In this document: piece by piece, positions 1,606 through 11,446 of the stretch
Layout: each line of letters begins with the position of its first letter
Position numbering within the stretch: position 1 is the stretch's first letter
NCBI GenBank assembly: GCA_024654305.1
Contig: JANLIU010000041.1
Span: 1-24,000, forward strand
Reading direction: 5' to 3'
Length of the DNA stretch: 24,000 bases
Source: Candidatus Parcubacteria bacterium
Lineage (GTDB): Bacteria; Patescibacteriota; Minisyncoccia; Phycocordibacterales; Phycocordibacteraceae
The notes under the pieces: model-generated
Databases searched by the model: none
What the model was told of the DNA's origin: nothing
Seen by the model: the letters and a program-made list of their open reading frames with translations, nothing else
Program-made: the position numbers and the translations under genes

Positions 1606-1626
1606 TAACACACCTAGAACACGGAC

Positions 1627-1653
1627 TTGACACTAAATCAACAATAGTATAAC
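1627..1653 (+). promoter_or_regulatory. Candidate promoter for the RAMP-like gene and possibly the whole downstream locus
   Basis: TTGACA (1627-1632), then TATAAC (1648-1653) after a short 15-nt spacer. Divergent from the nusA promoter. Confidence 0.4.
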
Positions 1654-1729
1654 ATTTCTCTCGGCTATATGGCATTCCGCCATCGTGCTTCAGTACCTTC
1701 AACCAACCTACAGACAAGGAGAAGTTCGC

Positions 1730-2341
1730 ATGAAAACGTTCAAAATCCGCTGTGCTGGTATCTCGCCCCTGCTGATGGACCAAATGTCGAAGGCAACTCT
1801 GGAGTCGCTCGCCACCGGCGTGCGCCTGCAGGTCGCCAAGGACCGTCCCGCCGAAGACGTCGCTAAGGAGAAAATCTACCGCGACCCGAACGGCCGCATC
1901 GCCCTCCCCGCCGAGATGCTCTTCGCTGCGCTCGTCGGAGCTGGCAGGAACGTCAAGATCGGCAAGAAAGGCGTCAGCACCGCGACCACCACCCAGCTCC
2001 CGGACTTCCTGTCCATCGCGGAGTCGCATCTGCCGCTCACCAACATCCCCGCGAACGCCAACGGTGCCGAGAAAGACTTCTGGGCCGCCGACATGCGCAA
2101 AGGGATGGGCTACAACGGCAAGACGCCGACCGCCGTCGCAATCATCCGGCCGAAGTTCCCGAACTGGGAATTCGAGGTCACGGTGAAGCTCGACGAGAAG
2201 AAAGCCGGGCAAGACACGGTGATGGCGCTCTTCCAGAACGCCGGCTCCACGCAAGGACTCGGTTCGTTCCGCCCGAACAAAAAAGGCATGTTCGGACGCT
2301 TCGAGGTCGCCGAGATGAAAGAAGTCAAAGCGGCCGCGTAG
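1730..2341 (+). CDS. Hypothetical 203-aa protein with RAMP/RRM-like sequence features (possible RNA-binding protein)
   Basis: ORF 1685..2341 trimmed to MKTFKIR (ATG 1730), which has AAGGAGAAG 8 nt upstream. N-terminal strand plus SPLLM, a LPAEMLFAALVGAGR segment, and a C-terminal glycine-rich loop GLGSFRPNKKGMFGRFEV. These resemble the Cas5/6/7 RAMP pattern, judged by eye only. Confidence 0.75.
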   Translation: MKTFKIRCAGISPLLMDQMSKATLESLATGVRLQVAKDRPAEDVAKEKIYRDPNGRIALPAEMLFAALVGAGRNVKIGKKGVSTATTTQLPDFLSIAESHLPLTNIPANANGAEKDFWAADMRKGMGYNGKTPTAVAIIRPKFPNWEFEVTVKLDEKKAGQDTVMALFQNAGSTQGLGSFRPNKKGMFGRFEVAEMKEVKAAA

Positions 2342-2360
2342 TAACTCGGCTCTGTCGGGG

Positions 2361-2394
2361 ACGGGGGTCGAAAGGCTCCCGTTTGTTTTTTATT
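2361..2394 (+). terminator. Intrinsic terminator after the 203-aa gene
   Basis: ACGGGGGUC-GAAA-GGCUCCCGU forms 9 bp (two G-U pairs) with a GNRA loop, followed by UUGUUUUUUAUU. Confidence 0.7.
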
Positions 2395-2448
2395 GCGTAC
2401 ATTACTGAAGAGCGAACTATCGTGCTCTATACGTCCACTAGACTGTCG

Positions 2449-2526
2449 AGCTGGGGCAAATGAAAATTTGTCCCGCTGTTCGGGAAATGTGTATTTCCCC
2501 TGATGAGCTCGAAAGAGCGAAAACAG
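2449..2526 (+). ncRNA. Hammerhead ribozyme H1 (type III) with 5' clamp hairpin
   Basis: AGC-U-GGGGCAAAU/AUUUGUCCC-GCU hairpin, then GUUC with predicted cleavage after C2481. Stem I GGGAAAU/AUUUCCC, core CUGAUGA, stem II GCUC-GAAA-GAGC, then GAAA-ACAG pairing with CUGU (stem III). Confidence 0.9.
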
Positions 2527-2584
2527 TGTTTCAATAGAGTCTTCTAGTGCTAACTTCATTTCAGTTACCTACAGTACTGTGCAG

Positions 2585-2690
2585 AGTTGGGAGTTCTTCG
2601 GGACTCCCACTGTTCTCCCGATGTGCGTCGGGACTGATGAATCCCCGCCTCCGTTCCACTTCGGACAGGCAGGCGAAAGGACGAAAACAG
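2585..2690 (+). ncRNA. Hammerhead ribozyme H2, variant with a 31-nt insertion in loop II
   Basis: Clamp AGU-U-GGGAGUUC-UUCG-GGACUCCC-ACU (AGU/ACU covaries with AGC/GCU). Cleavage predicted after C2615. Stem I UCCCGA/UCGGGA, core CUGAUGA. Stem II UCC...GGA carries an inserted hairpin (CGCCU...AGGCG), and position 10.1 is A opposite C. Confidence 0.6.
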
Positions 2691-2753
2691 AAATGTTCTG
2701 GTGCGAAGTATGGCACCCTGTTGTGTTGTAGCCTTAGCTCTTCTGAAGTGCAG

Positions 2754-2828
2754 GTCGGAGCTTGCTCCGACAACTTAAGTGCATTCTTACGAGCGCACTT
2801 AAGGCAGTGCTTTCGAAAGAGAGTGCTG
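2754..2828 (+). ncRNA. Module B copy B1: conserved three-hairpin RNA of unknown class
   Basis: Hairpin 1 GUCGGAGC-UUG-CUCCGAC. Hairpin 2 CUUAAGUGC...GCACUUAAG with an apical UUC-UUAC-GAG. Hairpin 3 GCAGUGCUUUC-GAAA-GAGAGUGCUGU. Confidence 0.7.
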
Positions 2829-2886
2829 TAATCCAGTTAACTACTATTCTCTGTTTTAGCCCGCTGTTCTCTCTGTTATTGTATAG

Positions 2887-2963
2887 AGCTGGGGATTCCT
2901 TGCGAATCCCCGCTGTTCGGGAAGTATGGGCTTCCCCTGATGAGCTCGAAAGAGCGAAAACAG
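2887..2963 (+). ncRNA. Hammerhead ribozyme H3 (type III) with 5' clamp hairpin
   Basis: Clamp GGGGAUUC/GAAUCCCC. Cleavage after C2918. Stem I GGGAAG/CUUCCC, CUGAUGA, stem II GCUC-GAAA-GAGC, GAAAACAG. Confidence 0.9.
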
Positions 2964-3061
2964 ATGTTCTAGAAATGAAAGAGTGGTAACGGCCTACACT
3001 CCGCTGTCCTAGGCTGGTCCAAACCACTGCTGACTAGAGTGTCTCCCCCACTCCACTACAG

Positions 3062-3136
3062 GTCGGGGCCTGCTCCGACACCTTAAGTAAATTCGAGGGA
3101 GTTTATTTAAGGCGGTGCTTTCGAAAGAGAGTGTTG
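3062..3136 (+). ncRNA. Module B copy B2
   Basis: Hairpin 1 GUCGGGGC-CUG-CUCCGAC. Hairpin 2 CUUAAGUAAA/UUUAUUUAAG, which covaries with B1. Hairpin 3 GCGGUGCUUUC-GAAA-GAGAGUGUUGC. Confidence 0.7.
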
Positions 3137-3196
3137 CAAATTAAAGTGTGTTCCGCTGGCCTGGTCCATTGTTCGTTTCTCCGGGGTCCACTAAAG

Positions 3197-3271
3197 GGCT
3201 GGGGATTTGTAAAATCCCCGCTGTTCCACGGATGTGAGTCCGTGCTGATGATTCCGAAAGGATGAAAACAG
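3197..3271 (+). ncRNA. Hammerhead ribozyme H4, variant with a U:U pair at 10.1/11.1
   Basis: Clamp GGGGAUUU/AAAUCCCC. Cleavage after C3226. Stem I CACGGA/UCCGUG (covaries). CUGAUGA-UUCC-GAAA-GGAU-GAAAACAG, so the usual G10.1-C11.1 pair is replaced by U/U and the copy may be impaired. Confidence 0.6.
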
Positions 3272-3328
3272 AATCCAGTTACGTGCAGTTACCTCAACTG
3301 TTCTCAAGTTTTCTCCCGTAGACTGCAG

Positions 3329-3406
3329 AGCTGGGATTCTCGCAAAAGAATCCCGCTGTTCGCGGAATGAATGTTCCGCCTGATGAGTCGGAAACGACGA
3401 AAACAG
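3329..3406 (+). ncRNA. Hammerhead ribozyme H5 (type III) with 5' clamp hairpin
   Basis: Clamp GGGAUUCU/AGAAUCCC. Cleavage after C3361. Stem I GCGGAA/UUCCGC, CUGAUGA, stem II GUCG-GAAA-CGAC, GAAAACAG. Confidence 0.9.
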
Positions 3407-3470
3407 ATATCGGCATGCTGTAGGCTTATGCGGAGTTCTCTGTAGTATGGTCAACTCCAGTACTGTCCCG

Positions 3471-3546
3471 GTCGGGGATTCGTCCCCGACACTTAAGTAA
3501 ATTCGAGAGAGTTTATTTAAGGCAGTGCTTTCGAAAGAGAGTGCTG
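3471..3546 (+). ncRNA. Module B copy B3
   Basis: Hairpin 1 GUCGGGGA-UUCG-UCCCCGAC. Hairpin 2 CUUAAGUAAA/UUUAUUUAAG. Hairpin 3 GCAGUGCUUUC-GAAA-GAGAGUGCUGU. Confidence 0.7.
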
Positions 3547-3610
3547 TGAATCAAGTGCCCCTGTGTACAGTATTGTATTCTGCGTTGCACCAAACTCGTG
3601 TGGAGTAAGG

Positions 3611-3686
3611 AGCTGGGGCGAAGTAATTCGCCCCGCTGTTCGCGAGATGTGAGTCTCGCCTGATGAGTCCGAAAGGACGAAAACAG
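3611..3686 (+). ncRNA. Hammerhead ribozyme H6 (type III) with 5' clamp hairpin
   Basis: Clamp GGGGCGAA-GUAA-UUCGCCCC. Cleavage after C3641. Stem I GCGAGA/UCUCGC, CUGAUGA, stem II GUCC-GAAA-GGAC, GAAAACAG. Confidence 0.9.
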
Positions 3687-3749
3687 AAATTAAGTTAAGT
3701 TATGTCGAGTTTAGTACACTAATCACCTCTGCTGCCAGGTTGAGTACAG

Positions 3750-3825
3750 AGCTGGGGCAAAGCAATTTGCTCCGCTGTTCGGAAGATGTATGTCTTCCCT
3801 GATGAGCTCGAAAGAGCGAAAACAG
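3750..3825 (+). ncRNA. Hammerhead ribozyme H7 (type III), immediately upstream of the helicase RBS
   Basis: Clamp GGGGCAAA-GCAA-UUUGCUCC. Cleavage after C3780. Stem I GGAAGA/UCUUCC, CUGAUGA, stem II GCUC-GAAA-GAGC, GAAAACAG. Ends 21 nt before the AAGGAG at 3847. Confidence 0.9.
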
Positions 3826-3859
3826 TTTTGATCTTTGAATCACTACAAGGAGAACTAAT

Positions 3860-5638
3860 GTGGAACATCTCGATCCAGTGCGGTTTTTCCCGCGCAATCG
3901 GTACTCGGCAGTGCTGGGTAATCAAAAGTCTGCATTCAACTTCATCAAAGAAAGCGCCGCGAGCATCCTGGTGCTTGAATGTCCGACGGGAACGGGTAAA
4001 ACCGCCATCGGCTATTCGTATCTGCGGGCCATGCTCGCAAGTGGAGTGAAGCAACCCTTCTACCTCGTGCCAAACAAGACGCTCGCCGAACAAGTGAAAG
4101 GGCTTCATCCTGATGTGCACGCGGTCTACGGGCGGAACGAGCATCCGTGCTTGTTCTATCCGGGAGAAAATCTGCGTGCCGACGAGATACCGTGCTCATT
4201 GCTTCAAGAATGCCCGCACCGCGTCAACCAGGAAACTGGCGAAACGAAGGAGTCGGACGCAGAACGCTGTCCGTACCTGCAACAAAAGTACGAAGCAAAG
4301 CAGGGCAGAGGCATTATCGTCGCAACGCACGCGTTCTACCTCTACTCGGTCTTCTTCGCGAAAGAGTTCGAGCCCGGAGCGGTCGTCATTGACGAAGCGC
4401 ACGGCATCGCGAAGTCTATCCGGTCGGTACTTGAATTTCATATTACCGACTGGAATCTGGGGCGAATGGTGGAGCTCTTAGCTACCATCCTCTCAAGCCA
4501 GGCCGAGGTGCTCGACACCTTCCGTAAGCGGATGATCGCAATCATCAAGGCCAAAGAGGCGTCTAAGAAGACGATTCTCGAGGCCGATGAGATCAGGGAA
4601 CTCCTTGACCTCACGAACGCAATCGATACGCGCGCGGTTGATGCCGAGATTCGGGCGGCCATAGCCGTTGGGCTGGTCGATCGGAAGAAAGACCGTCTAG
4701 CATTAAAGCAACTCGAAATTCTTGGCCGCGATCTACGGATGTACATGCGGTCGTTTGAGTTCGCTCTGCCTACCGAAGCACGCCACCCTCTCAACTTCAC
4801 CTTCGCTTTCTGGAAGCGCGAGCTCGAAGAAGGGAAGCGGGTTCAGTATGAACTCGTGGTGAAGTCGTATTACGTCGCACCGTTGGTGAAGAAGATGCTC
4901 CCCAAGAACGTGCTCGCCTACTCGGCGACTATCGGCAATCCGGAGATTTTCAGCCATGAGACGGGGATTAAGGGAGAGTTTCTTTCCCTGCCGTCCACCT
5001 TCTCGTCTGACAATACTCGGATATTCATGCCGACGGACACGCCGAACTTGTCGGTCAAGGAACGCAATCGTCGTGATAAGACGAAATCGCTTCGTATGAT
5101 CGCCAAAGCGTGTGCAACGTTTGCGAAGAAAGGCATCCGCTCGCTGGTCGTCGTCGCATCAAATGAGGAACGTCAAAAATTCCTCATGCTCGCAGTCGAG
5201 GAGGGTGTGAAAGCGCTTTCCTATGGCGAAGGAGTCACTCCGCGCGCATGCGCAAAGCGATTCCGCGAGGGTGAAGGCGATGTACTCGTCGGCACTGACT
5301 CGAATTACGGCGAAGGTGTGGATCTGCCGAAAGGCATCGCACCGGTCATCTTCTACTACCGCCCGAGCTATCCGCGCCCTGACGACCCTGCATCGGTCTT
5401 TGAGGAACAGCGCTTCGGCGGCCAGCGCTGGCATGTCTGGAATTGGCGGGTGATCATTGGTCTTTTGCAGGTCCGTGGTCGCAATATCCGCTCTGTTGAA
5501 GATACTGGGGTAACATTCCTGATATCTCAGCAGTTCCGGCGCTTCGCTTATGGTTCGCTCCCCGAGTGGCTCAAGCCGGCGTATGTCGGCGGCAAGACAT
5601 TCGAGGAGTGCGTGAAGGACACGGTCAAAATGTTATAG
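3860..5638 (+). CDS. XPD/Rad3/DinG-family SF2 helicase with a predicted 4-Cys Fe-S domain (592 aa)
   Basis: GTG start at 3860, 7 nt after AAGGAG. Walker A CPTGTGKT and DEAH box VIDEAHG. Four Cys lie between motifs Ia and II (HPC, IPC, ECP, RCP), as in XPD/DinG Fe-S domains. C-terminal motifs VLVGTDSNYGEGVDLP and LLQVRGRNIRSVEDTG. Confidence 0.85.
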   Translation: MEHLDPVRFFPRNRYSAVLGNQKSAFNFIKESAASILVLECPTGTGKTAIGYSYLRAMLASGVKQPFYLVPNKTLAEQVKGLHPDVHAVYGRNEHPCLFYPGENLRADEIPCSLLQECPHRVNQETGETKESDAERCPYLQQKYEAKQGRGIIVATHAFYLYSVFFAKEFEPGAVVIDEAHGIAKSIRSVLEFHITDWNLGRMVELLATILSSQAEVLDTFRKRMIAIIKAKEASKKTILEADEIRELLDLTNAIDTRAVDAEIRAAIAVGLVDRKKDRLALKQLEILGRDLRMYMRSFEFALPTEARHPLNFTFAFWKRELEEGKRVQYELVVKSYYVAPLVKKMLPKNVLAYSATIGNPEIFSHETGIKGEFLSLPSTFSSDNTRIFMPTDTPNLSVKERNRRDKTKSLRMIAKACATFAKKGIRSLVVVASNEERQKFLMLAVEEGVKALSYGEGVTPRACAKRFREGEGDVLVGTDSNYGEGVDLPKGIAPVIFYYRPSYPRPDDPASVFEEQRFGGQRWHVWNWRVIIGLLQVRGRNIRSVEDTGVTFLISQQFRRFAYGSLPEWLKPAYVGGKTFEECVKDTVKML

Positions 5639-5691
5639 AGTAGCGTTCTGTGTCGTGTCCTGCTCCTGTGGTTCTCTAACGTCACCTACGG

Positions 5692-5780
5692 GGCGGCCTC
5701 TGTCAGTAATGACATTGGTCGCCACTTAAGTGCATTCGCAAGAGTGCATTTAAGATAGTCCTTTTGCAAAAGAGGATTGC
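5692..5780 (+). ncRNA. Module B copy B4 (divergent, in the helicase 3' UTR)
   Basis: Hairpin 1 is replaced by the longer GGCGGCC...GGUCGCC enclosing GUCA-GUAA-UGAC. Hairpin 2 CUUAAGUGCA/UGCAUUUAAG with apical UUC-GCAA-GAG. Hairpin 3 UAGUCCUUUU-GCAA-AAGAGGAUUG has a different sequence but the same fold. Confidence 0.6.
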
Positions 5781-5862
5781 GAACGAAGTGTCGTGCTCTT
5801 TCGTCAAGTAAAATATTCAACTCTCTCGTGCATTGTCGTGACTTATCGCGAACTAATCTAAA

Positions 5863-5940
5863 GAGCTGGGACTTTCTCGTAAGGTCCCGCTGTTCGGGAA
5901 GTGTGAGCTTCCCCTGATGAGTCCGAAAGGACGAAAACAG
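5863..5940 (+). ncRNA. Hammerhead ribozyme H8 (type III) with 5' clamp hairpin
   Basis: Clamp GGGACUUU/AAGGUCCC. Cleavage after C5895. Stem I GGGAAG/CUUCCC, CUGAUGA, stem II GUCC-GAAA-GGAC, GAAAACAG. Confidence 0.9.
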
Positions 5941-6019
5941 CAAACATCGTTATCTATTCTGGTGTTTTCTGTTGCCAAGCGTCCTACTGTTGGACATCGT
6001 ACGCAATGCCACAGTGCAG

Positions 6020-6096
6020 GTCGGGACTTCGGTTCCGACACTTAAGTACATTCTCGTAAGTGTACTTAAGGCAGTGCTTTCTCAAGAGAGCGCCGC
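6020..6096 (+). ncRNA. Module B copy B5
   Basis: Hairpin 1 GUCGGGAC-UUCG-GUUCCGAC. Hairpin 2 CUUAAGUACA/UGUACUUAAG. Hairpin 3 GCAGUGCUUUC-UCAA-GAGAGCGCCGC (one A/C mismatch). Confidence 0.65.
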
Positions 6097-6153
6097 AAAT
6101 GTGGTTACGTGGACTAATGTCGAGTTCTCTTCACCAAGCTAGACCTCTCTACG

Positions 6154-6229
6154 GGATGGGGATTCGCGAGAATCCCTGCTGTTCGGGAAGTGTGCACTTC
6201 CCCTGATGAGCCGGAAACGGCGAAAACAG
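6154..6229 (+). ncRNA. Hammerhead ribozyme H9 (type III), clamp base slightly degenerate
   Basis: Clamp GGGGAUUC-GCGA-GAAUCCCU, with GGAU in place of AGCU at the base. Cleavage after C6184. Stem I GGGAAG/CUUCCC, CUGAUGA, stem II GCCG-GAAA-CGGC, GAAAACAG. Confidence 0.85.
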
Positions 6230-6303
6230 AGCATTACTCTAGAGTGAATTACAGTTCTGTATTGCACGGCTGACTCCACTGCGATAGTCTGTTCTACCCC
6301 GCA

Positions 6304-6381
6304 GGTCGGAACTCCGGTTCCGACAACTTAAATGTATTCGCGAGAGTACATTTAAGGCGGTGCTTTCGAAAGAGAGTGCTG
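6304..6381 (+). ncRNA. Module B copy B6
   Basis: Hairpin 1 GUCGGAAC-UCCG-GUUCCGAC. Hairpin 2 CUUAAAUGUA/UACAUUUAAG with apical UUC-GCGA-GAG. Hairpin 3 GCGGUGCUUUC-GAAA-GAGAGUGCUGC. Confidence 0.7.
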
Positions 6382-6449
6382 CAATCCACTTGAGTGTCCT
6401 AGTGTGGCGTTCTCTGCGTTTCTGTGAGTTCCACTTTTCTCCTGTATAG

Positions 6450-6527
6450 AGCTGGGATTCTTTTCGAAGAATCCCGCTGTTCGCGGAATGAATGTTCCGC
6501 CTGATGAGCTCGAAAGAGCGAAAACAG
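6450..6527 (+). ncRNA. Hammerhead ribozyme H10 (type III) with 5' clamp hairpin
   Basis: Clamp GGGAUUCUU-UUCG-AAGAAUCCC. Cleavage after C6482. Stem I GCGGAA/UUCCGC, CUGAUGA, stem II GCUC-GAAA-GAGC, GAAAACAG. Confidence 0.9.
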
Positions 6528-6582
6528 CATCCCAGCAGAGTAGAGTGAGTCGGAGTACACTGTCGCACAGTAAATTCCTCTA

Positions 6583-6658
6583 GGCTGACTTTCTAGCCAC
6601 CACTTAAGTGCATTCTCACGAGTGTATTTAAGGCAGTGCTTTCGTAAAGAGAGTGTTG
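6583..6658 (+). ncRNA. Module B copy B7 (weak hairpin 1)
   Basis: Hairpin 1 is reduced to GGCU...AGCC. Hairpin 2 CUUAAGUGCA/UGUAUUUAAG. Hairpin 3 GCAGUGCUUUC-GUAAA-GAGAGUGUUGC. Confidence 0.6.
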
Positions 6659-6737
6659 CAAATCTGTAGGATCTACTATCCTGTTGCGTCCTGCAGTACA
6701 CTGTCGTGACCTGCATCCCTACCAATGTTCTCTACCG

Positions 6738-6773
6738 AGCTGACCCCGCCCACGGCGGGGTTGCTTTTTTGTG
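6738..6773 (+). terminator. Intrinsic terminator closing the second array, built on the clamp-hairpin frame
   Basis: AGCU-G-ACCCCGCC-CAC-GGCGGGGU-U-GCU-UUUUUUGUG. This has the same AGC...GCU framing as the hairpin preceding every hammerhead, but is followed by a U-tract instead of GUUC plus a ribozyme. Confidence 0.75.
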
Positions 6774-6808: not shown

Positions 6809-7672
6809 ATGCCTGAAAAACAGCCCATCTACCGTAATACCGAAGACGAACGCATGTACGAGAGTTCTTATTTGAAGCCAGAAGAAGCTCATGCGCGCGC
6901 CACGGGAGCTCTGGCTGAATATGAAATCAAGCCCGAGATATTCGCCGGCCTCTATGGCGAAGACATCCTCAAACGCGATGCCGACGAGGTGGCACACCTC
7001 GAAAAAGCTTTTGAAAAAACACCTGCAAAGATTTACGGCGATATCCTCGAGGCTGTCGCGTGCGAACACGGGGAATTAAGCGATTGGTTCGGATCGAAGT
7101 CGCAGGTCATCAAGACGGCCCGTTTTGACGATTACAAGAACAAGATTGATATGATTGTTGAAACGGAGTCGGACAATAACCAATTTTCCCATCTGGCTCT
7201 TGGTATTGATGTCACGTTCGGGAGTCGGGACTTGCATAAAAAGTTTGATGCGATAAAAGCGAACATAGACGGAGGGCGACTCGGGCAAGTAAAATATTTC
7301 CATTCAGACCGTCAACATATCACCGGGCGCTTGAGGAAGATCCCGCAGGTGGTCGTCGGAGTCGAGATCGAGAGAGTGAAGGAGCTCGGTCTCTTGTGGA
7401 TGAATCGGCGGAATAAAGAGCTCGCTGAACACCCGGTGCAGATGGCAATTCTTGAAGAATCGGCATTACAGCTAAAAACATTTGCTGAATACGCAAAAAG
7501 CATCGGTAAAAATGATCTCACTGCCATCTTTGAGAGAGAATTGCAAAAAATAAATGAGATGCTGGAGGAGAAGAGGGAAGCCGGCATCATGAGCCTAGAA
7601 CAGGATAAGGTTTTTGAAGAGATAGAAAGGAATCTCGCCTCGTTTGCCACTCCCGCCACCGCACAAATTTAA
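6809..7672 (+). CDS. Hypothetical protein (287 aa), no family recognised
   Basis: ORF 6725..7672 trimmed to MPEKQPIY (ATG 6809), because the first 28 codons overlap the array terminator. TAGTAT sits 7 nt upstream of the ATG. The sequence is charged and helix-rich. Confidence 0.6.
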   Translation: MPEKQPIYRNTEDERMYESSYLKPEEAHARATGALAEYEIKPEIFAGLYGEDILKRDADEVAHLEKAFEKTPAKIYGDILEAVACEHGELSDWFGSKSQVIKTARFDDYKNKIDMIVETESDNNQFSHLALGIDVTFGSRDLHKKFDAIKANIDGGRLGQVKYFHSDRQHITGRLRKIPQVVVGVEIERVKELGLLWMNRRNKELAEHPVQMAILEESALQLKTFAEYAKSIGKNDLTAIFERELQKINEMLEEKREAGIMSLEQDKVFEEIERNLASFATPATAQI

Positions 7673-7730: not shown

Positions 7731-8207
7731 TCAGGCAGAAGAGTTCAGAACTCCGCCGAGATGAGCTTCTCCGGTAGAGACTGTGTTCTTGGATTTGGAT
7801 GCGACTTCCTTCGGCTCGGCAAACCTGAAGAGATCGCCGGTCTCAGCGATGGATGTGTCCAAGCACAATGTCCAATCGCTACAAAACACGAACGGTTTGT
7901 GAACGAACACCGGATATTGCCGCAAGATCTCGTTCCGGAAGAGGCGCCCAACGATGTCACAGAGGTCCACCTTCATCGCAAACGCGTCTGCATCTTTTTG
8001 CGGGCTCAGCTTCTGGCATTCCAGGTCCAGCATGTGCTGGAGCGTGTAGAGGCGTTTGATCTTGTGTCCTGCTTCGCCGACCGCAACATGCTGCTTTTCG
8101 CGCTGCTGTAATGGCGCGATGAATTGCTTTGCCGAGATGGCCGCGAATCTGCCGTTTATTTCTGACAAGATTCCGACGGCGTTCGTTGCACTTTTGATAT
8201 TTTCCAT
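7731..8207 (-). CDS. Hypothetical protein (158 aa)
   Basis: ORF 7731..8288 (-) trimmed to MENIKSATNAV (ATG 8207), which has GGAAAGGAA upstream. Its composition looks more protein-like than the overlapping + ORF 7644..8111. Confidence 0.5.
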   Translation of the reverse strand: MENIKSATNAVGILSEINGRFAAISAKQFIAPLQQREKQHVAVGEAGHKIKRLYTLQHMLDLECQKLSPQKDADAFAMKVDLCDIVGRLFRNEILRQYPVFVHKPFVFCSDWTLCLDTSIAETGDLFRFAEPKEVASKSKNTVSTGEAHLGGVLNSSA

Positions 8208-8354
8208 TACGTTCCTTTCCCAAAAGTTAAAAGATCTAGGCACGACTTCACCTGACGTAGGTATAGCGAGAGAATCGTTCCTCTGCAAGTTTTCGGCACA
8301 ATGCTGTGAAATGCGCGCCTCACGGAGGGCAGGGCGCGCTATACTTTACTGCAT

Positions 8355-10103
8355 ATGCACGTTTCGGAAGGCGAGCTGAAAGAGTTCATCACTGATTCGG
8401 GCCTCGTCGCCAAGAAAGAGATAGATGCGGCAGACGAGGAGGCGAAAAAGAAAGGGCAGTCGCTCGGCGATATCCTCGTATCGCGCGGTTCACTCACCGA
8501 GGACGCGCTCCGGCGTATCCAGGCGTATGTGCTCGGCATCCCGTTCGTCAATCTGAAAGACCACCACATCCCGGTCGACGTGCTCTCGCTCATTCCGGAA
8601 CCGATTGCCCGCACGCACAACATCATTGCGTATAAAAAAGGCGATGATTCACTTGAAGTGGCGATGCTCGATGTAGAGGACCTCGCCTCCATTGATTCAG
8701 TGCGTAAAAAAACGGGGCTGAAAATATTATCGCGCCTCACCGACACCGAGAGCATCAAGTATGCGCTCCTGCAATACCAAAAATCGCTCAAGGATGAATT
8801 CGGCGATATCATTTCGGCCGAAGCGGGCAAAATAAAAGTCATCGCAGAAGGCAACAAAGACCTCTCGGGTGACGACCTCAAGAAAATGGCGGAGGACTTG
8901 CCCATCGTGCGCATCGTGGACACACTCCTGCGCCACGCCATCGTGCAAGGCGCGTCCGATATTCACATAGAGCCGATGGAGGACCAAGTGATGGTGCGCT
9001 ACCGCATTGATGGCATCCTGCATGATGCGATGACACTGCCAAAAGCTGCGGCGGCCGGCATCGTCGCGCGCATCAAGGTGCTTTCCAATTTGAAACTCGA
9101 CGAGAAGCGCCTGCCGCAAGACGGACGTTTCAAAATGGAGACTGAAGCAGACCGCGTGTCGTTCCGCGTGTCCATTCTCCCGACCTTTTTCGGCGAGAAA
9201 ACCGTTATGCGTCTTCTACGCGAGACCGGCGAAGGGTTCACACTCGATGTGTTGGGTTTGCACGGAGAGAACATGGAGCGCATTCACCATGCACTGAAAC
9301 AGACGACGGGTATTATTCTCGTTTCCGGACCAACGGGCTCCGGAAAAACGACGACGCTTTACACCATGCTCGATATTCTGAACCGACCAGATGTGAATAT
9401 CTCAACCGTCGAAGATCCTATCGAGTATCAGATGAAGCGCGTGAACCAAACGCAAGTGAATCCGCAAATAGGTTTCACATTCGCCAACGGACTCCGCTCG
9501 CTCGTGCGTCAGGACCCGGACATCATCATGGTCGGCGAGATACGCGACAGCGAGACGGCATCGCTCGCCATCAATGCCGCACTCACCGGTCACCTCGTAC
9601 TCTCGACCATCCACACCAATAGCGCCGCCGGCGCCATACCGCGCCTCATTGATATGGGCGTGGAGCCGTTCCTCCTTGTGTCGACCATCCGCGTCATCAT
9701 AGGGCAACGGCTCGTGCGGAAGCTCTGTGAAGGAAAGGAAGCATACACGCTTGATGCGACCACGCGCGCGAAAATCTCAAGCGAAGAGGGATTCAATATC
9801 GCGTTCAAAGCCCTAAAGGATGAGAAGCTTGTGAAAGCGGGGTCGACGCTCGATGACATCGCATTCTATCGGCCGGTACCGTCGCCTGAGTGCGTTGATG
9901 GATATAAAAGCCGCATCGGCATCCATGAAGTGCTCGCGGTGACGCCGACCATCCGCGAGATCATCCTCCATTCGAGTACGAGCGATGCTATCGAAGCGCA
10001 AGCGAAGAAGGAAGGAATGCTCACGATGCGCGAAGACGGTCTCTACAAAGCCGCGCGCGGCATCACCAGCCTTGAGGAAGTGCTCCGTGCCATATCCGAA
10101 TAG
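8355..10103 (+). CDS. pilB: Type IV pilus assembly ATPase PilB (GspE family)
   Basis: N-terminal T2SSE_N-like domain, Walker A GPTGSGKTTT and His box LTGHLVLSTIHTN. 582 aa. Confidence 0.9.
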   Translation: MHVSEGELKEFITDSGLVAKKEIDAADEEAKKKGQSLGDILVSRGSLTEDALRRIQAYVLGIPFVNLKDHHIPVDVLSLIPEPIARTHNIIAYKKGDDSLEVAMLDVEDLASIDSVRKKTGLKILSRLTDTESIKYALLQYQKSLKDEFGDIISAEAGKIKVIAEGNKDLSGDDLKKMAEDLPIVRIVDTLLRHAIVQGASDIHIEPMEDQVMVRYRIDGILHDAMTLPKAAAAGIVARIKVLSNLKLDEKRLPQDGRFKMETEADRVSFRVSILPTFFGEKTVMRLLRETGEGFTLDVLGLHGENMERIHHALKQTTGIILVSGPTGSGKTTTLYTMLDILNRPDVNISTVEDPIEYQMKRVNQTQVNPQIGFTFANGLRSLVRQDPDIIMVGEIRDSETASLAINAALTGHLVLSTIHTNSAAGAIPRLIDMGVEPFLLVSTIRVIIGQRLVRKLCEGKEAYTLDATTRAKISSEEGFNIAFKALKDEKLVKAGSTLDDIAFYRPVPSPECVDGYKSRIGIHEVLAVTPTIREIILHSSTSDAIEAQAKKEGMLTMREDGLYKAARGITSLEEVLRAISE

Positions 10104-10110
10104 TATGAGT

Positions 10111-10228
10111 CCCGTTAGAAATCGCGGACGCTTTGGTACAATACAGAACATGAGTTCGTTTATTAACGATAATCGGATAGGGTTCGGCCGCGGCATTTGC
10201 TGCGCGTCCGCGTCCTATTTCTAACGGG
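10111..10228. mobile_element. MITE-like palindromic element E1 (118 bp) between pilB and pilC
   Basis: Terminal inverted repeats CCCGTTAGAAAT+CGCGGACGC and GCGTCCGCG+(tcct)+ATTTCTAACGGG. Flanked by direct ATGAG / ATGAG. Its core is homologous to E2. Confidence 0.7.
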
Positions 10229-11446
10229 ATGAGATTTCGCATTACGGTACGAAAAGAAGGTGCACCGGATGATAAACGGGTCGTTGAGGCGCCATCGCGT
10301 TTTGATGTGTATGAACAAATACGGAATGAAGGCGGTTTCGTCACGGCGATTGAAGAACTGCATGGATTTAGCTTGGATGCGCTTTCTCGTTTCAACATAT
10401 CTATCGGCACCGGCATCAAGCGCATGGAGATCATCCGCACGGCGAAGAATCTTTCCGCCATGCTCTCCGCCGGCCTTTCCATCTCACGCGCGCTTTCGGT
10501 CATTGAACGGCAATCGAATAACAAACATTTGAAAGCAATAGCCACAGGTATCGCCGAATCGGTGAAGAAAGGTTCTTCATTCCACGAGGCACTCGCCATG
10601 CATCCGGATGTATTCCCGGAGATATTCGTCGCGATGGCGCGGGCGGGAGAAGAATCAGGCTCTCTGGCAGACTCGCTCACGGTCGTCGCGCTCCAGATGG
10701 AACGTTCCGAAGAACTCATACGCAAGATAAAAGGTGCAATGATCTATCCGGCGATCGTCATCACTGCGGTCGTTGTCGTGGGCATCCTCATGCTCATTTA
10801 CGTAGTGCCGACGTTGACCAGCACATTCACTTCCCTCGGGGTGAAGGTTCCGCTTGCCACACGCGTCATCGTGGCACTTTCAAATTTCATGGTCGCGAAT
10901 GTGATGCTCGTGCTTGTGTCCTTGTTTGCGATCGTGGTCGGCGGCATTCTTTTCGTTCGTTCAAAAATCGGGAATAGGATCGTCCTTGCTGTCGCACTTC
11001 ATATGCCGGTCATCAACGAGCTCGTGCGCGAGACGTACACCGCGCGCGCCGCGCGGACACTCTCATCGCTCCTCTCCGCGGGAGTGCCGGTGCTTGACGC
11101 ACTTTCAATAACCAAAGCCGTCGTGCATGCAGAATCATTCGCGGATGTCGTCGCTGAAGCTGAAGCGCATGTGAAAAAAGGGGAATTGCTTTCCACCGCG
11201 TTCAGCGAACATCCGAAATTATATCCGATATTGATGAGCGACATGCTCGCGGTAGGGGAGGAGACTGGCAAAGTCGCCGAGATGCTGAAACAAATCGCGG
11301 AATTCTATGAAGAGGATGTGGCGCAGAAGACGAAGGACCTCTCGACCGTCATTGAGCCGCTCCTCATGCTTGTCATCGGCGCGGCCGTCGGTATCTTTGC
11401 GGTCGCGGTAATCTCACCTATTTATCAGCTGTCATCGGCTATCTAG
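10229..11446 (+). CDS. pilC: Type IV pilus platform protein PilC (GspF family)
   Basis: 405 aa with two T2SSF-type repeats and polytopic TM segments. Sits immediately downstream of pilB. Confidence 0.9.
   Translation: MRFRITVRKEGAPDDKRVVEAPSRFDVYEQIRNEGGFVTAIEELHGFSLDALSRFNISIGTGIKRMEIIRTAKNLSAMLSAGLSISRALSVIERQSNNKHLKAIATGIAESVKKGSSFHEALAMHPDVFPEIFVAMARAGEESGSLADSLTVVALQMERSEELIRKIKGAMIYPAIVITAVVVVGILMLIYVVPTLTSTFTSLGVKVPLATRVIVALSNFMVANVMLVLVSLFAIVVGGILFVRSKIGNRIVLAVALHMPVINELVRETYTARAARTLSSLLSAGVPVLDALSITKAVVHAESFADVVAEAEAHVKKGELLSTAFSEHPKLYPILMSDMLAVGEETGKVAEMLKQIAEFYEEDVAQKTKDLSTVIEPLLMLVIGAAVGIFAVAVISPIYQLSSAI

Follow-up and report, generated by a model that had tools for sequence, protein, structure and literature searches.

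Arrays of hammerhead ribozymes in a bacterial chromosome raise the question of what kind of RNA they release. The arrays considered here lie in a 24,000-nt stretch of chromosomal DNA (the window) from a bacterium of the candidate phyla radiation, a relative of Candidatus Kaiserbacteria. An initial annotation had proposed type III hammerheads generating discrete fragments under selection for size. The ribozymes are confirmed below, and the fragments and their ends are supported in silico; selection on product size is not. The sequence evidence makes it highly probable that positions 1617–6773 constitute a single cassette of a VIPR (Viral Interference Programmable Repeat) system, in which hammerhead-cut arrays would yield guide RNAs. 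In order, the cassette comprises a vipr gene, guide array 1, a gene for a DinG/XPD-like helicase (the accessory gene), guide array 2 and a terminator. Coordinates refer to the window, and all the features described lie on the + strand.

Ten type III hammerhead ribozymes

A search for the pattern CTGTTC-N10-30-CTGATGA returned ten matches in the window, with 0.04 expected from shuffled sequences; every one is on the + strand, between 2476 and 6507. Each copy was then parsed in full as CTGTT|C, an 18-nt stem-loop I, CTGATGA, stem-loop II, GAAA and ACAG, and the sites obtained are identical to those of the initial annotation. Hammerheads 1 to 10 span 2476–2526, 2610–2690 (45.6 bits), 2913–2963, 3221–3271, 3356–3406, 3636–3686, 3775–3825, 5890–5940, 6179–6229 and 6477–6527, and are predicted to cleave after C17, at positions 2481, 2615, 2918, 3226, 3361, 3641, 3780, 5895, 6184 and 6482, respectively. 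Spacings between sites (134, 303, 308, 135, 280, 139, 2115, 289 and 298 nt) agree exactly with those given earlier, and every stem I and stem II sequence quoted there is found in the parse. Hammerhead cleavage leaves 5'-OH and 2',3'-cyclic phosphate ends, and through this established chemistry the ends proposed for the fragments are supported in silico.

Covariation in stems I and II, also claimed at the outset, is strong. When nine window copies were aligned with three from one relative, 99.4% of cells paired, with compensatory changes in six of six pairs in stem I and three of four in stem II, and an invariant stem III. The proportion is likewise 99.4% among 126 related copies (98 distinct), where compensatory changes affect 13 of 15 pairs. 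The covariation score of this larger set is 0.676; shuffles score 0.197 and slid controls no more than 0.128. The G10.1-C11.1 pair is absent in two of the ten ribozymes: copy 2 carries A.C at 10.1/11.1, together with a 30-nt insertion in stem II, and copy 4 carries U.U. Because of these mismatches, both copies may cleave poorly. Neither irregularity was mentioned in the initial annotation.

An Rfam search gave no match at the gathering score for any copy; eight copies match RF00008 at 22–38 bits, under the cut-off of 48.5. The resemblance to the viroid, satellite and retrozyme hammerheads of that family covers the catalytic core, a stem III that is open while stems I and II are closed, a stem I of 6–7 bp with a small loop, a stem II of 4 bp closed by a GAAA loop, and the occurrence of tandem copies predicted to free unit-length RNAs. 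Beyond their lower scores, the copies described here differ in being encoded by bacterial-chromosome DNA, for what we propose to be guide-RNA maturation, and nothing indicates a circular or replicating RNA.

A pentamer code between the ribozymes

The apparently variable segments of the arrays are tracts of 10–19 pentanucleotide repeats of the form N-W-S-U-N. A 5-nt periodicity is seen at lags 5, 10 and 15 (z of 8.5–8.9 for GT and 5–7 for CT), exclusively on the + strand of the arrays. In array 1, the tracts are u1 (2527–2581, 11 repeats, with the N-W-S-U-N register fixed to the tail), u2a (2691–2750, 12), u2b (2829–2883, 11), u3a (2967–3061, 19, degenerate), u3b (3139–3193, 11), u4 (3276–3325, with S-U in ten of ten), u5a (3408–3467, 12), u5b (3548–3607, 12) and u6 (3687–3746, 12). 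Those following the helicase gene are lead2a (5639–5698, weak, 5 of 12), lead2b (5786–5860, 15 repeats), u8a (5942–6016, 15), u8b (6102–6151, 10), u9a (6232–6301, 14), u9b (6387–6446, 12), tail2a (6528–6582, 11) and tail2b (6669–6738, 14, weak). In a logo of 109 repeats, positions 1 and 5 hold about 0.03 bit, position 2 is A or U in 86 of the 109, position 3 is G (62) or C (47) and position 4 is U. S-U is missing from 95 of 204 pentamers, roughly half, which counts against the VIPR reading.

Homologous guides in three arrays retain their NN positions while the inner triplets drift. The u9b guide recurs in a relative, L087, with all 24 NN positions intact and 3 of 36 inner positions changed. 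Comparison of u2b with two related arrays finds 12/14 and 11/14 NN positions the same, versus 10/21 and 11/21 inner positions; over its first six or seven repeats, the NN positions are common to arrays L087 and L050. A search of a viral collection for DNA targets, using five 18-base gapped patterns, gave 0, 2, 0, 0 and 0 matches (about 0.6 each expected by chance); both matches were lost on extension, leaving no target in that collection, another point against the VIPR reading. The initial annotation had recognised neither the pentamer code nor the genes that flank the arrays.

Modular architecture of the units

Directly 5' of the cleavage sites, RNAfold predicts tail hairpins (module A) at 2450–2476, 2588–2609, 2888–2913, 3201–3219, 3330–3356, 3612–3636, 3751–3775, 5865–5890, 6158–6177 and 6451–6477; at the end of array 2, an intrinsic terminator (6741–6773) stands in for the last one. 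Some tracts are separated by module B, a covarying element of three hairpins (P1, P2, P3), found at 2748–2837, 3055–3143, 3465–3555, 5697–5788 (where P1 and P3 are divergent, with compensating changes), 6014–6103, 6299–6389 and 6578–6665. Measured from either the tail hairpin or P1 of module B, the pentamer register does not vary.

A short unit (~135 nt) thus consists of a ribozyme, one tract and a tail hairpin; in a long unit (~290 nt), module B and then a second tract lie between the first tract and the tail hairpin. As claimed originally, module B is missing from the three ~135-nt units and present exactly once in each ~290-nt unit; array 2 has one further copy in its leader and one in its trailer. 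The two size classes correspond to one-tract and two-tract units, and selection on length need not be invoked, since modular composition suffices to explain their regularity.

Such units could also be viewed as precursors of small circular, viroid- or retrozyme-like RNAs closed by RtcB or by self-ligation, the circles being the functional product. Each monomer is predicted to have the appropriate 5'-OH and 2',3'-cyclic phosphate ends, and its 3' CUGUU could re-pair with its own 5' AACAG in the geometry of viroids and retrozymes; moreover, discrete unit lengths (144–152 and 273–314 nt) recur in relatives. However, the units are filled with what is predicted to be a protein-binding pentamer code, in a register set by the 3' hairpin, and the conserved cassette around them also encodes a RAMP and a helicase. 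Arrays associated with the same Vipr family contain no ribozyme at all in L004 and L007–L010 and only one in 1.5 kb in L050, so that neither cleavage nor ligation is the essence of the system. Neither a reverse transcriptase nor a replicase was seen in the cassette, and nothing at the locus points to RtcB-type circularisation. We consider this explanation very unlikely. The vipr gene, its conserved helicase partner and the 5-nt code lead us instead to identify the predicted array products as VIPR guide RNAs (vrRNAs) rather than size-selected or circular RNAs.

The vipr and helicase genes

Homology with L087 begins at 1617, marking the left edge of the conserved cassette, and a promoter-like site (TTGACA-17-TAACAT, 10/12 matches) is found at 1627–1655. 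The vipr gene (1730–2341), followed by a terminator-like hairpin (2359–2384), encodes 203 aa. Its family profile matches PDB 36pp, "SUSP1 Vipr protein", over the full length (residues 1–198 versus 1–195; E=1.6e-10), and an AF2 model (pLDDT 89) has its best Foldseek matches in Csm3 and type VII Cas7 (E~1e-6). The product is thus a homologue of SUSP1 Vipr, a ~20 kDa ancestral RAMP with a predicted Cas7/Csm3 fold that would bind RNA. It also matches phrog_4652 (E=4e-20), and homologues about 25% identical occur in ~85 kb phages of Salmonella and E. coli. As many as 53 of the 56 nucleotide differences from the L087 gene fall at third codon positions, the signature of strong purifying selection.

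The accessory (vap-like) gene (3860–5638) encodes a DinG/XPD-family Fe-S SF2 helicase of 592 aa, with matches to the Pfam families Helicase_C_2, DEAD and ResIII, to phrog_2488 and to XPD structures; Pfam and PADLOC profile searches found no nuclease domain in it. The two genes lie side by side in each of the eight distinct related loci with long enough flanks, in at least four different neighbourhoods (loci named for the pairing: L001, L004, L007, L008, L009, L087 and L089; L016 is the L001 contig). The helicase therefore stays the partner of vipr across unrelated genomic contexts.

The pairing recalls type IV-A CRISPR-Cas, where a Cas7 (Csf2) filament on crRNA works with the DinG helicase Csf4. 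A RAMP filament on a guide RNA is proposed here as well, the helicase is of the XPD/DinG family, and an obvious nuclease is absent from both. One might thus regard the locus as a degenerate type IV system, outside the VIPR lineage, that has lost its CRISPR array and other Cas genes: Vipr has a Cas7-like fold, and the best PADLOC match of the helicase, over its full length, is a DinG profile labelled type IV-A-associated (typeIV_DinG PDLC01439, E=1.3e-40). Of three type IV DinG profiles, however, just this one is matched strongly; the matches to the canonical Csf4 profiles are weak (2e-4 and 2e-7). The RAMP matches SUSP1 Vipr by sequence and none of the PADLOC, Pfam or NCBIfam Cas profiles. CRISPR repeats, Cas5, Cas6 and Cas8 are absent at the locus, and the RNA period is 5 nt versus the 6 nt of Cas7 backbones, with pairing proposed to be gapped rather than contiguous. 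Type IV-A systems reside mostly on plasmids, whereas tblastn with the helicase gave no plasmid matches. A type IV origin is less probable still than circular RNAs, and we retain the VIPR assignment.

Relation to described VIPR systems

Published VIPR systems combine Vipr, vrRNAs with 9–16 pentamer repeats and a 3' tail, and a vap gene; 25% of them are chromosomal (bioRxiv 10.64898/2026.04.26.720920). Comparisons with that preprint made here refer to its main text, methods and legends. For types I and V it describes "hammerhead ribozyme-interspersed arrays", with sRNA-seq support (legend to fig. S19), and for types III–V helicase or nuclease vaps, type V being said to have a nuclease. The present cassette resembles types I and V in having a Vipr RAMP gene with one accessory gene, long non-coding flanks, arrays of pentamer guides with structured 3' tails, and hammerheads between neighbouring guides. 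It differs in that the accessory gene encodes a DinG/XPD-like helicase lacking a nuclease domain, and in that module B replaces the ribozyme at some junctions, giving two-tract units. The combination of hammerhead arrays, reported for types I and V, with such a helicase, where type V is said to have a nuclease, leads us to assign the cassette to no particular VIPR type.

The repeat consensus is W-S-U/NN as opposed to GGY/NN, which also counts against the VIPR reading; among the alternative forms listed in the preprint (NNNGG, YNNNG and NNNNG), YNNNG is the nearest. As in SUSP1 and the Pseudomonas fulva type II system, a homologous Vipr of ~200 aa accompanies guides of ~10–16 pentamers with a 3' structure as cap, a structure that caps the filament according to a cryo-EM preprint (10.64898/2026.04.26.720927). 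Identity to those Vipr proteins is ~25% or less. Residues R32, R140, F180 and R181 align with K33, R138, W178 and R179 of SUSP1 Vipr, but H17 and D177, which read the first G of GGY in SUSP1, correspond to D17 and S179, suggesting replacement in step with the change of that repeat base from G to A/U. A simple hairpin, rather than a pseudoknot, forms the tail, the vap of SUSP1 is predicted to bind DNA rather than to be a helicase, and the preprint text does not describe SUSP1 arrays as ribozyme-interspersed. The ribozyme-cut guide-RNA arrangement is thus already known, having first been described in 2026 (bioRxiv 10.64898/2026.04.26.720920); the W-S-U/NN consensus, module B and a host related to Candidatus Kaiserbacteria go beyond the main text, methods and legends of that work.

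Hammerhead 7 lies just 5' of a ribosome binding site (AAGGAG, 3848–3853) preceding the helicase ORF, and its cleavage would make the 5' end of the helicase mRNA. The hammerheads might accordingly be general operon- or mRNA-processing elements that separate cistrons, the repeats being incidental and the ribozymes having no specific tie to guide RNAs. The same subtype occurs in 73 other metagenome loci without a Vipr homologue, where the ribozymes lie between ORFs, as do five between ~200-aa genes in L058. Nine of the ten copies in the window, on the other hand, adjoin no plausible ORF, the segments between them carry a strand-specific 5-nt code and conserved tails, and exactly such arrays are described in the VIPR preprint. 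We regard an exclusive processing role as the least improbable of the alternatives, though still very unlikely; it is in any case compatible with a guide-array role, and the hammerhead looks like a general tool co-opted by the guide array.

A model for guide maturation

In our model, the arrays would be transcribed into long precursors, which the ten hammerheads would cut after C17. The RNA upstream of each cut would end in the tail hairpin and GCUGUUC>p, and the one downstream would begin with a ribozyme body of ~45 nt. Each freed RNA would contain one or two tracts of 10–19 N-W-S-U-N pentamers, the ~135-nt class being a single guide and the ~290-nt class two guides linked by module B, which may serve as another type of tail or handle or else as a non-ribozyme processing site. 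Since lead2a and lead2b have no ribozyme on their 5' side, hammerheads alone cannot free all guides. By analogy with SUSP1 VIPR, each Vipr protomer would take up one repeat, with the conserved W-S-U triplet flipped out and the two hypervariable bases, at position 5 of one repeat and position 1 of the following one, offered for gapped pairing with double-stranded DNA. The 3' hairpin would cap the filament and set its register, and the helicase would then work on the bound target.

In engineered ribozyme-gRNA-ribozyme (RGR) cassettes, hammerhead self-cleavage frees defined CRISPR guides from one polymerase transcript. Unlike these, the present arrays are natural, do without an HDV ribozyme, and have one ribozyme per junction, kept 5' of the next guide.

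A predicted VIPR locus

From its sequence, the feature is a predicted hammerhead-processed guide-RNA (vrRNA) array of a VIPR (Viral Interference Programmable Repeat) system. Such systems are described in two 2026 preprints (10.64898/2026.04.26.720920; 10.64898/2026.04.26.720927) and can be outlined as follows. Vipr, an ancestral RAMP protein of about 20 kDa, polymerises on a vrRNA made of 9-16 pentamer repeats with the consensus GGY/NN or "a related consensus", including YNNNG (10.64898/2026.04.26.720920). A structured 3' tail of the vrRNA caps the filament, and the NN dinucleotides pair with double-stranded DNA by a 1-nt-skip rule (VIPR preprints, 2026). The loci contain one vap (accessory) gene, a nuclease or helicase in types III-V, and "hammerhead ribozyme-interspersed arrays" confirmed by sRNA-seq occur in types I and V (10.64898/2026.04.26.720920). 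In the window all of the testable VIPR-defining features are found except two: proof of a target, and GGY as the exact consensus.

Hammerhead ribozymes of the two arrays

The initial annotation had proposed ten type III hammerhead ribozymes, and these withstood a systematic search. The pattern CTGTTC-N10-30-CTGATGA matches the window ten times, on the plus strand only, where shuffled sequences lead one to expect 0.04 matches. Every element parses as CUGUU|C, an 18-nt stem-loop I, CUGAUGA, stem-loop II, GAAA and ACAG. The full parse places C17 at 2481, 2615, 2918, 3226, 3361, 3641, 3780, 5895, 6184 and 6482, identical to the cleavage sites originally listed, and the predicted spacings of 134, 303, 308, 135, 280, 139, 2115, 289 and 298 nt agree exactly with the fragment ladder deduced at that time. 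The catalytic core (CUGAUGA ... GAAA, that is, C3-U4-G5-A6-N7-G8-A9 and G12-A13-A14) and the UUC cleavage triplet are present in all ten copies as claimed, and the topology is indeed that of type III, with stem III open and stems I and II closed by loops. The A15.1-U16.1 pair is U-A in all 86 scorable related sequences; one relative (L001, position 9030) carries U17.

The covariation reported earlier is equally real. When nine window copies are taken together with three from a relative, compensatory changes are seen in all stem I pairs and in three of the four stem II pairs; stem III is invariant in this set. A covariance model built from these copies, also used to find hammerheads in related loci, retrieved 126 copies from the window and metagenome loci. 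Here pairing is maintained in 99.4% of cells, compensatory changes affect 13 of 15 pairs, and the covariation score is 0.676, as compared to 0.197 for shuffles and no more than 0.128 for slid controls. At gathering score, Rfam returns no match anywhere in the window. At permissive thresholds, eight copies are reported by RF00008 (Hammerhead_3) with 22-38 bits against a cut-off of 48.5, and two go unreported; the same scan gave only these sub-threshold matches, with no other ribozyme class covering module B, the three-hairpin element of the long units. A tRNA search found none, so the hammerheads are not tRNA-linked.

The G10.1-C11.1 pair is present in eight of the ten copies; among related sequences, 95 of 98 have G-C there. 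Hammerhead 2 (2610-2690) has A.C at these positions and a 30-nt hairpin inserted in stem II, and hammerhead 4 (3221-3271) has U.U. Judging from these features, the two may be poor cleavers; should both lack activity, unit 1 would remain linked to unit 2 and unit 3 to unit 4, giving RNAs of 437 and 443 nt. The closing G-C of the hairpin that precedes each cleavage site (2450-2476 and nine others) uses the same C that begins the 5' strand of stem III. Because of this shared residue, folding of the hairpin and formation of the outermost stem III pair are mutually exclusive, and this may act as a small kinetic switch that decides whether the RNA cleaves or forms its tail. An exact copy of the tail-end and cleavage-site context, CCCGCTGTTC, is found at 2860-2869 within u2b (the guide tract following module B in unit 2), with no ribozyme after it. 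As C17 must be joined to stem I, this site is not cleavable in trans by a type III hammerhead; a chance occurrence or a remnant is the probable explanation.

Pentamer-repeat tracts and structured elements

Alignment of the units revealed two conserved elements: module A, the hairpin immediately 5' of each cleavage site, and module B, a set of three hairpins (P1, P2 and P3) in the long units. Folding of module B is strong (z ~ -5), and compensatory changes in 15 of 24 pairs among 18 copies from three arrays show covariation of helices P2 and P3. A 5-nt period of GT (z 8.5-8.9) and CT (z 5-7), seen at lags 5, 10 and 15, is restricted to the plus strand and to the array interior. When the units are aligned at the tail hairpin, or at module B P1, the pentamers share one register over the whole stretch between the hairpin and the preceding ribozyme or module B. 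The repeat logo is N-W-S-U-N: A or U occupies position 2 in 86 of 109 repeats, position 3 is split between G (62) and C (47), U stands at position 4, and the information at positions 1 and 5 amounts to about 0.03 bit. Written as W-S-U/NN, the window consensus differs from GGY. There are 17 tracts of 10-19 repeats, each in fixed register with a hairpin, which compares with about 9-16 repeats and a conserved structured 3' tail in VIPR. Short units contain one tract and long units two. The two size classes, previously ascribed to selection on product size, are therefore one-tract and two-tract units, and the selection argument is not supported; neither is the suggestion that the array products circularise.

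In close relatives the hammerheads are spaced by 144-152 and 273-314 nt, which repeats the two size classes, and outside the shared modules and shared guides the arrays are only about 70% identical to those of the window. Guide u9b, after module B in unit 9, differs between the window and the related array of L087 by three substitutions, every one outside NN. The first six to seven repeats of u2b recur in L087 and in a second relative, L050, with NN kept at 12 of 14 and 11 of 14 positions and the inner triplets at 10 of 21 and 11 of 21, figures that come from a small sample located by searching on NN matches. Within that limit, the pattern fits what would be expected if NN carries the information.

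Several arrangements indicate that ribozymes are not the sole maturation route: the two tracts that follow the helicase gene have no ribozyme on their 5' side, the paired tracts of the long units have none between them, and L050 has nine module B-like junctions for one hammerhead. This last locus is a 1.5-kb contig (1-1547, minus strand) consisting almost entirely of array, in which three-hairpin junctions separate the pentamer tracts; with the only hammerhead at 842-904, module B rather than the ribozyme is the usual junction. Two roles can be envisaged for module B: that of a processing site, or that of a tail or handle of a second type. A tentative reading for this clade, which would go beyond what has been published and which we regard as possible but less likely than not, combines module B as a distinct non-ribozyme junction with a repeat code rewritten from GGY to W-S-U. 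P1 would then cap the upstream guide, and P2 and P3 would serve as handle or processing site; the outcome would be either vrRNAs of two parts with two guides or a further route of maturation, in L050 the main one.

A different arrangement is seen in a Staskawiczbacteria-like relative. In L004 (8603-10834; also in L005 and L006), the gap between vipr and the helicase gene holds about ten pentamer-repeat units, all of them terminated by a hairpin and then CATTGCAATCAT, and lacks hammerheads. The gap also contains several internal terminator and promoter-like pairs and a small, very basic ORF (9988-10308). A first impression of a 6-nt, Cas7-like periodicity in L004 was discarded, the period being 5. 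Rfam gave no match on the ribozyme-free arrays of relatives. The L004 arrangement looks like another way of maturing guides that is used by members of this Vipr family.

The Vipr protein

The ORF upstream of array 1 (vipr, 1730-2341) ends in a RAMP-like glycine-rich loop, GLGSFRPNKKGMFGRF, and has no match in Pfam, PADLOC or NCBIfam. We collected 62 homologues; those named by their source all belong to candidate-phyla bacteria except for one labelled Dehalococcoidales. A profile of 37 homologues aligns over the full length with PDB 36pp, "SUSP1 Vipr protein" (E=1.6e-10). The nearest structural neighbours of the AlphaFold (AF2) model (pLDDT 89) are Csm3 and type VII Cas7. The protein also matches phrog_4652, and ORFs with about 25% identity to it occur in phages of about 85 kb infecting Salmonella and E. 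coli. Altogether, the sequence and the model point to a small RAMP with RRM core, G-rich loop and thumb, homologous to the characterised Vipr.

In the 36pp profile alignment, the SUSP1 residues that read the first G, H17 and D177, correspond to D17 and S179, and the backbone and stacking residues are kept (K33 as R32, R138 as R140, W178 as F180). Replacement of H17 and D177 would fit the change from G to A/U at that position of the repeat. If true, the rewritten code together with the H17 to D and D177 to S changes would be a natural example of altered Vipr scaffold specificity. In a Saccharibacteria contig (L007), pentamer tracts are flanked by two Vipr paralogues about 3 kb apart, at 6001-6657 (profile E=8e-91) and 9768-10403 (2e-37).

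The helicase partner and the genomic setting

The ORF between the arrays (3860-5638) encodes a DinG/XPD-family helicase. Its best PADLOC match is the type IV-associated DinG profile PDLC01439 (E=1.3e-40); Csf4_0_IVA and Csf4_3_IVE match weakly (2e-4 and 2e-7, respectively). Together with the G-rich loop of the RAMP, the DinG match raised the possibility of a degenerate type IV CRISPR system. This interpretation was dropped in view of the profile match to SUSP1 Vipr and of the VIPR literature. Whereas a type IV-A locus would have a CRISPR array built from unique spacers and short direct repeats, the repeated elements here are 51-nt ribozymes, hairpins and the 90-nt module B, in units of 134-308 nt. 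Csf1, Csf3 (Cas5) and Cas6/Csf5 accompany Csf2 in type IV-A; the cassette in the window has two genes only, and none of the Cas profiles in Pfam, PADLOC and NCBIfam matches its RAMP. A VIPR system accommodates this content, the minimal locus consisting of vipr and one vap gene without CRISPR array or other cas genes, as found here.

The DNA of the window is chromosomal and comes from a candidate-phyla-radiation bacterium; it carries genes for NusA, type IV pilus, glycolytic enzymes, RecJ and ComEC; the nearest named relative is a Candidatus Kaiserbacteria genome. A search against plasmids found no homologue of the helicase. The vipr and helicase genes are adjacent in every related locus with sufficient flanking sequence, and the pair occurs in at least four neighbourhoods: beside NusA, a ribosomal-protein operon, a PemK toxin gene, or a gene for a protein with weak matches to ATPase domains of type IV secretion (DUF87, TrwB). 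The PemK gene lies downstream in L087; the ribosomal-protein operon adjoins the L088 locus, and NusA is the neighbour in L089 and in the window. Homology to L087 (window 1617-5961, L087 598-4240) delimits the cassette: one stretch begins at 1617 and reaches hammerhead 1, another lies between hammerheads 7 and 8. In this comparison the Vipr protein is 98.5% identical and its DNA 91%, with 53 of the 56 nucleotide differences in vipr at third codon positions. The differing neighbourhoods and the protein conservation suggest that the cassette is mobile or frequently rearranged, and under strong purifying selection.

Two ORFs just 3' of array 2, at 6809-7672 (plus strand, 287 aa) and 7731-8288 (minus strand, 185 aa), have no Pfam or PADLOC match and nothing above weak, sub-cut-off scores in NCBIfam. 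Since the 287-aa ORF is absent from related loci and has no PHROGs match, it is probably not part of the VIPR system.

Proposed maturation of the guides

We envisage one or two long transcripts, beginning after the vipr terminator (2359-2384) and ending at the terminator at 6741-6773. The hammerheads are predicted to cut these after each C17. The upstream RNA would acquire a clean 3' end seven nucleotides beyond the tail hairpin, and the downstream RNA would still begin with the ribozyme body of 45 nt. Cleavage by hammerhead 7 would also create the 5' end of the helicase mRNA. By analogy with the SUSP1 work, Vipr would cover the pentamer tracts, starting at their capped 3' end, and the helicase would act on the bound DNA.

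No new category is opened by this locus, VIPR systems and their hammerhead arrays having been reported in 2026. What it offers is a VIPR cassette that is complete and well delimited, from a bacterium related to Candidatus Kaiserbacteria. It comprises vipr and a DinG-like helicase gene together with ten hammerheads and 17 candidate guides; its putative natural ribozyme-processed guide-RNA array was recognisable to a reader of the sequence without tools. The locus is a compact test bed for guide maturation, for recognition of a non-GGY scaffold and for the contribution of the helicase partner, and it would provide one concrete job for the many bacterial hammerheads of unknown role. Three local peculiarities are worth pursuing: the W-S-U/NN code, module B and the DinG-like partner.

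Search for targets

Exact blocks of nine NN from five guides, read with the 1-nt-skip code, matched a viral collection at chance level only. As 18-base gapped patterns, the five gave 0, 2, 0, 0 and 0 matches in this collection, and no target. The two matches (L085 and L086) were rejected because flanking NN positions disagree; one also lies outside any ORF. A 16-base pattern gave ten matches, none of which extends, setting the chance expectation at about 0.6 per 18-base pattern. Within 1.2 Mb of local sequence, skip rules of 0-3 recovered only self-matches and the shared guides, and no self-target.

The same ribozyme outside VIPR

Vipr was sought in 74 metagenome loci sharing the ribozyme motif (L011-L084) and was present only in the already known relative. 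The other 73 have the same hammerhead subtype, with its 4-bp stem II, GAAA loop and CUGUU/AACAG stem III, located between ORFs; the ribozyme is thus not a marker of VIPR. The motif was not found in viral contigs. These data suggest that the subtype separates cistrons generally in these bacteria. One such locus, L058, has a series of consecutive ORFs of about 190-230 aa, none with a Pfam match, and five plus-strand copies of the hammerhead (4286, 5583, 6389, 7150 and 9041) lie between them.
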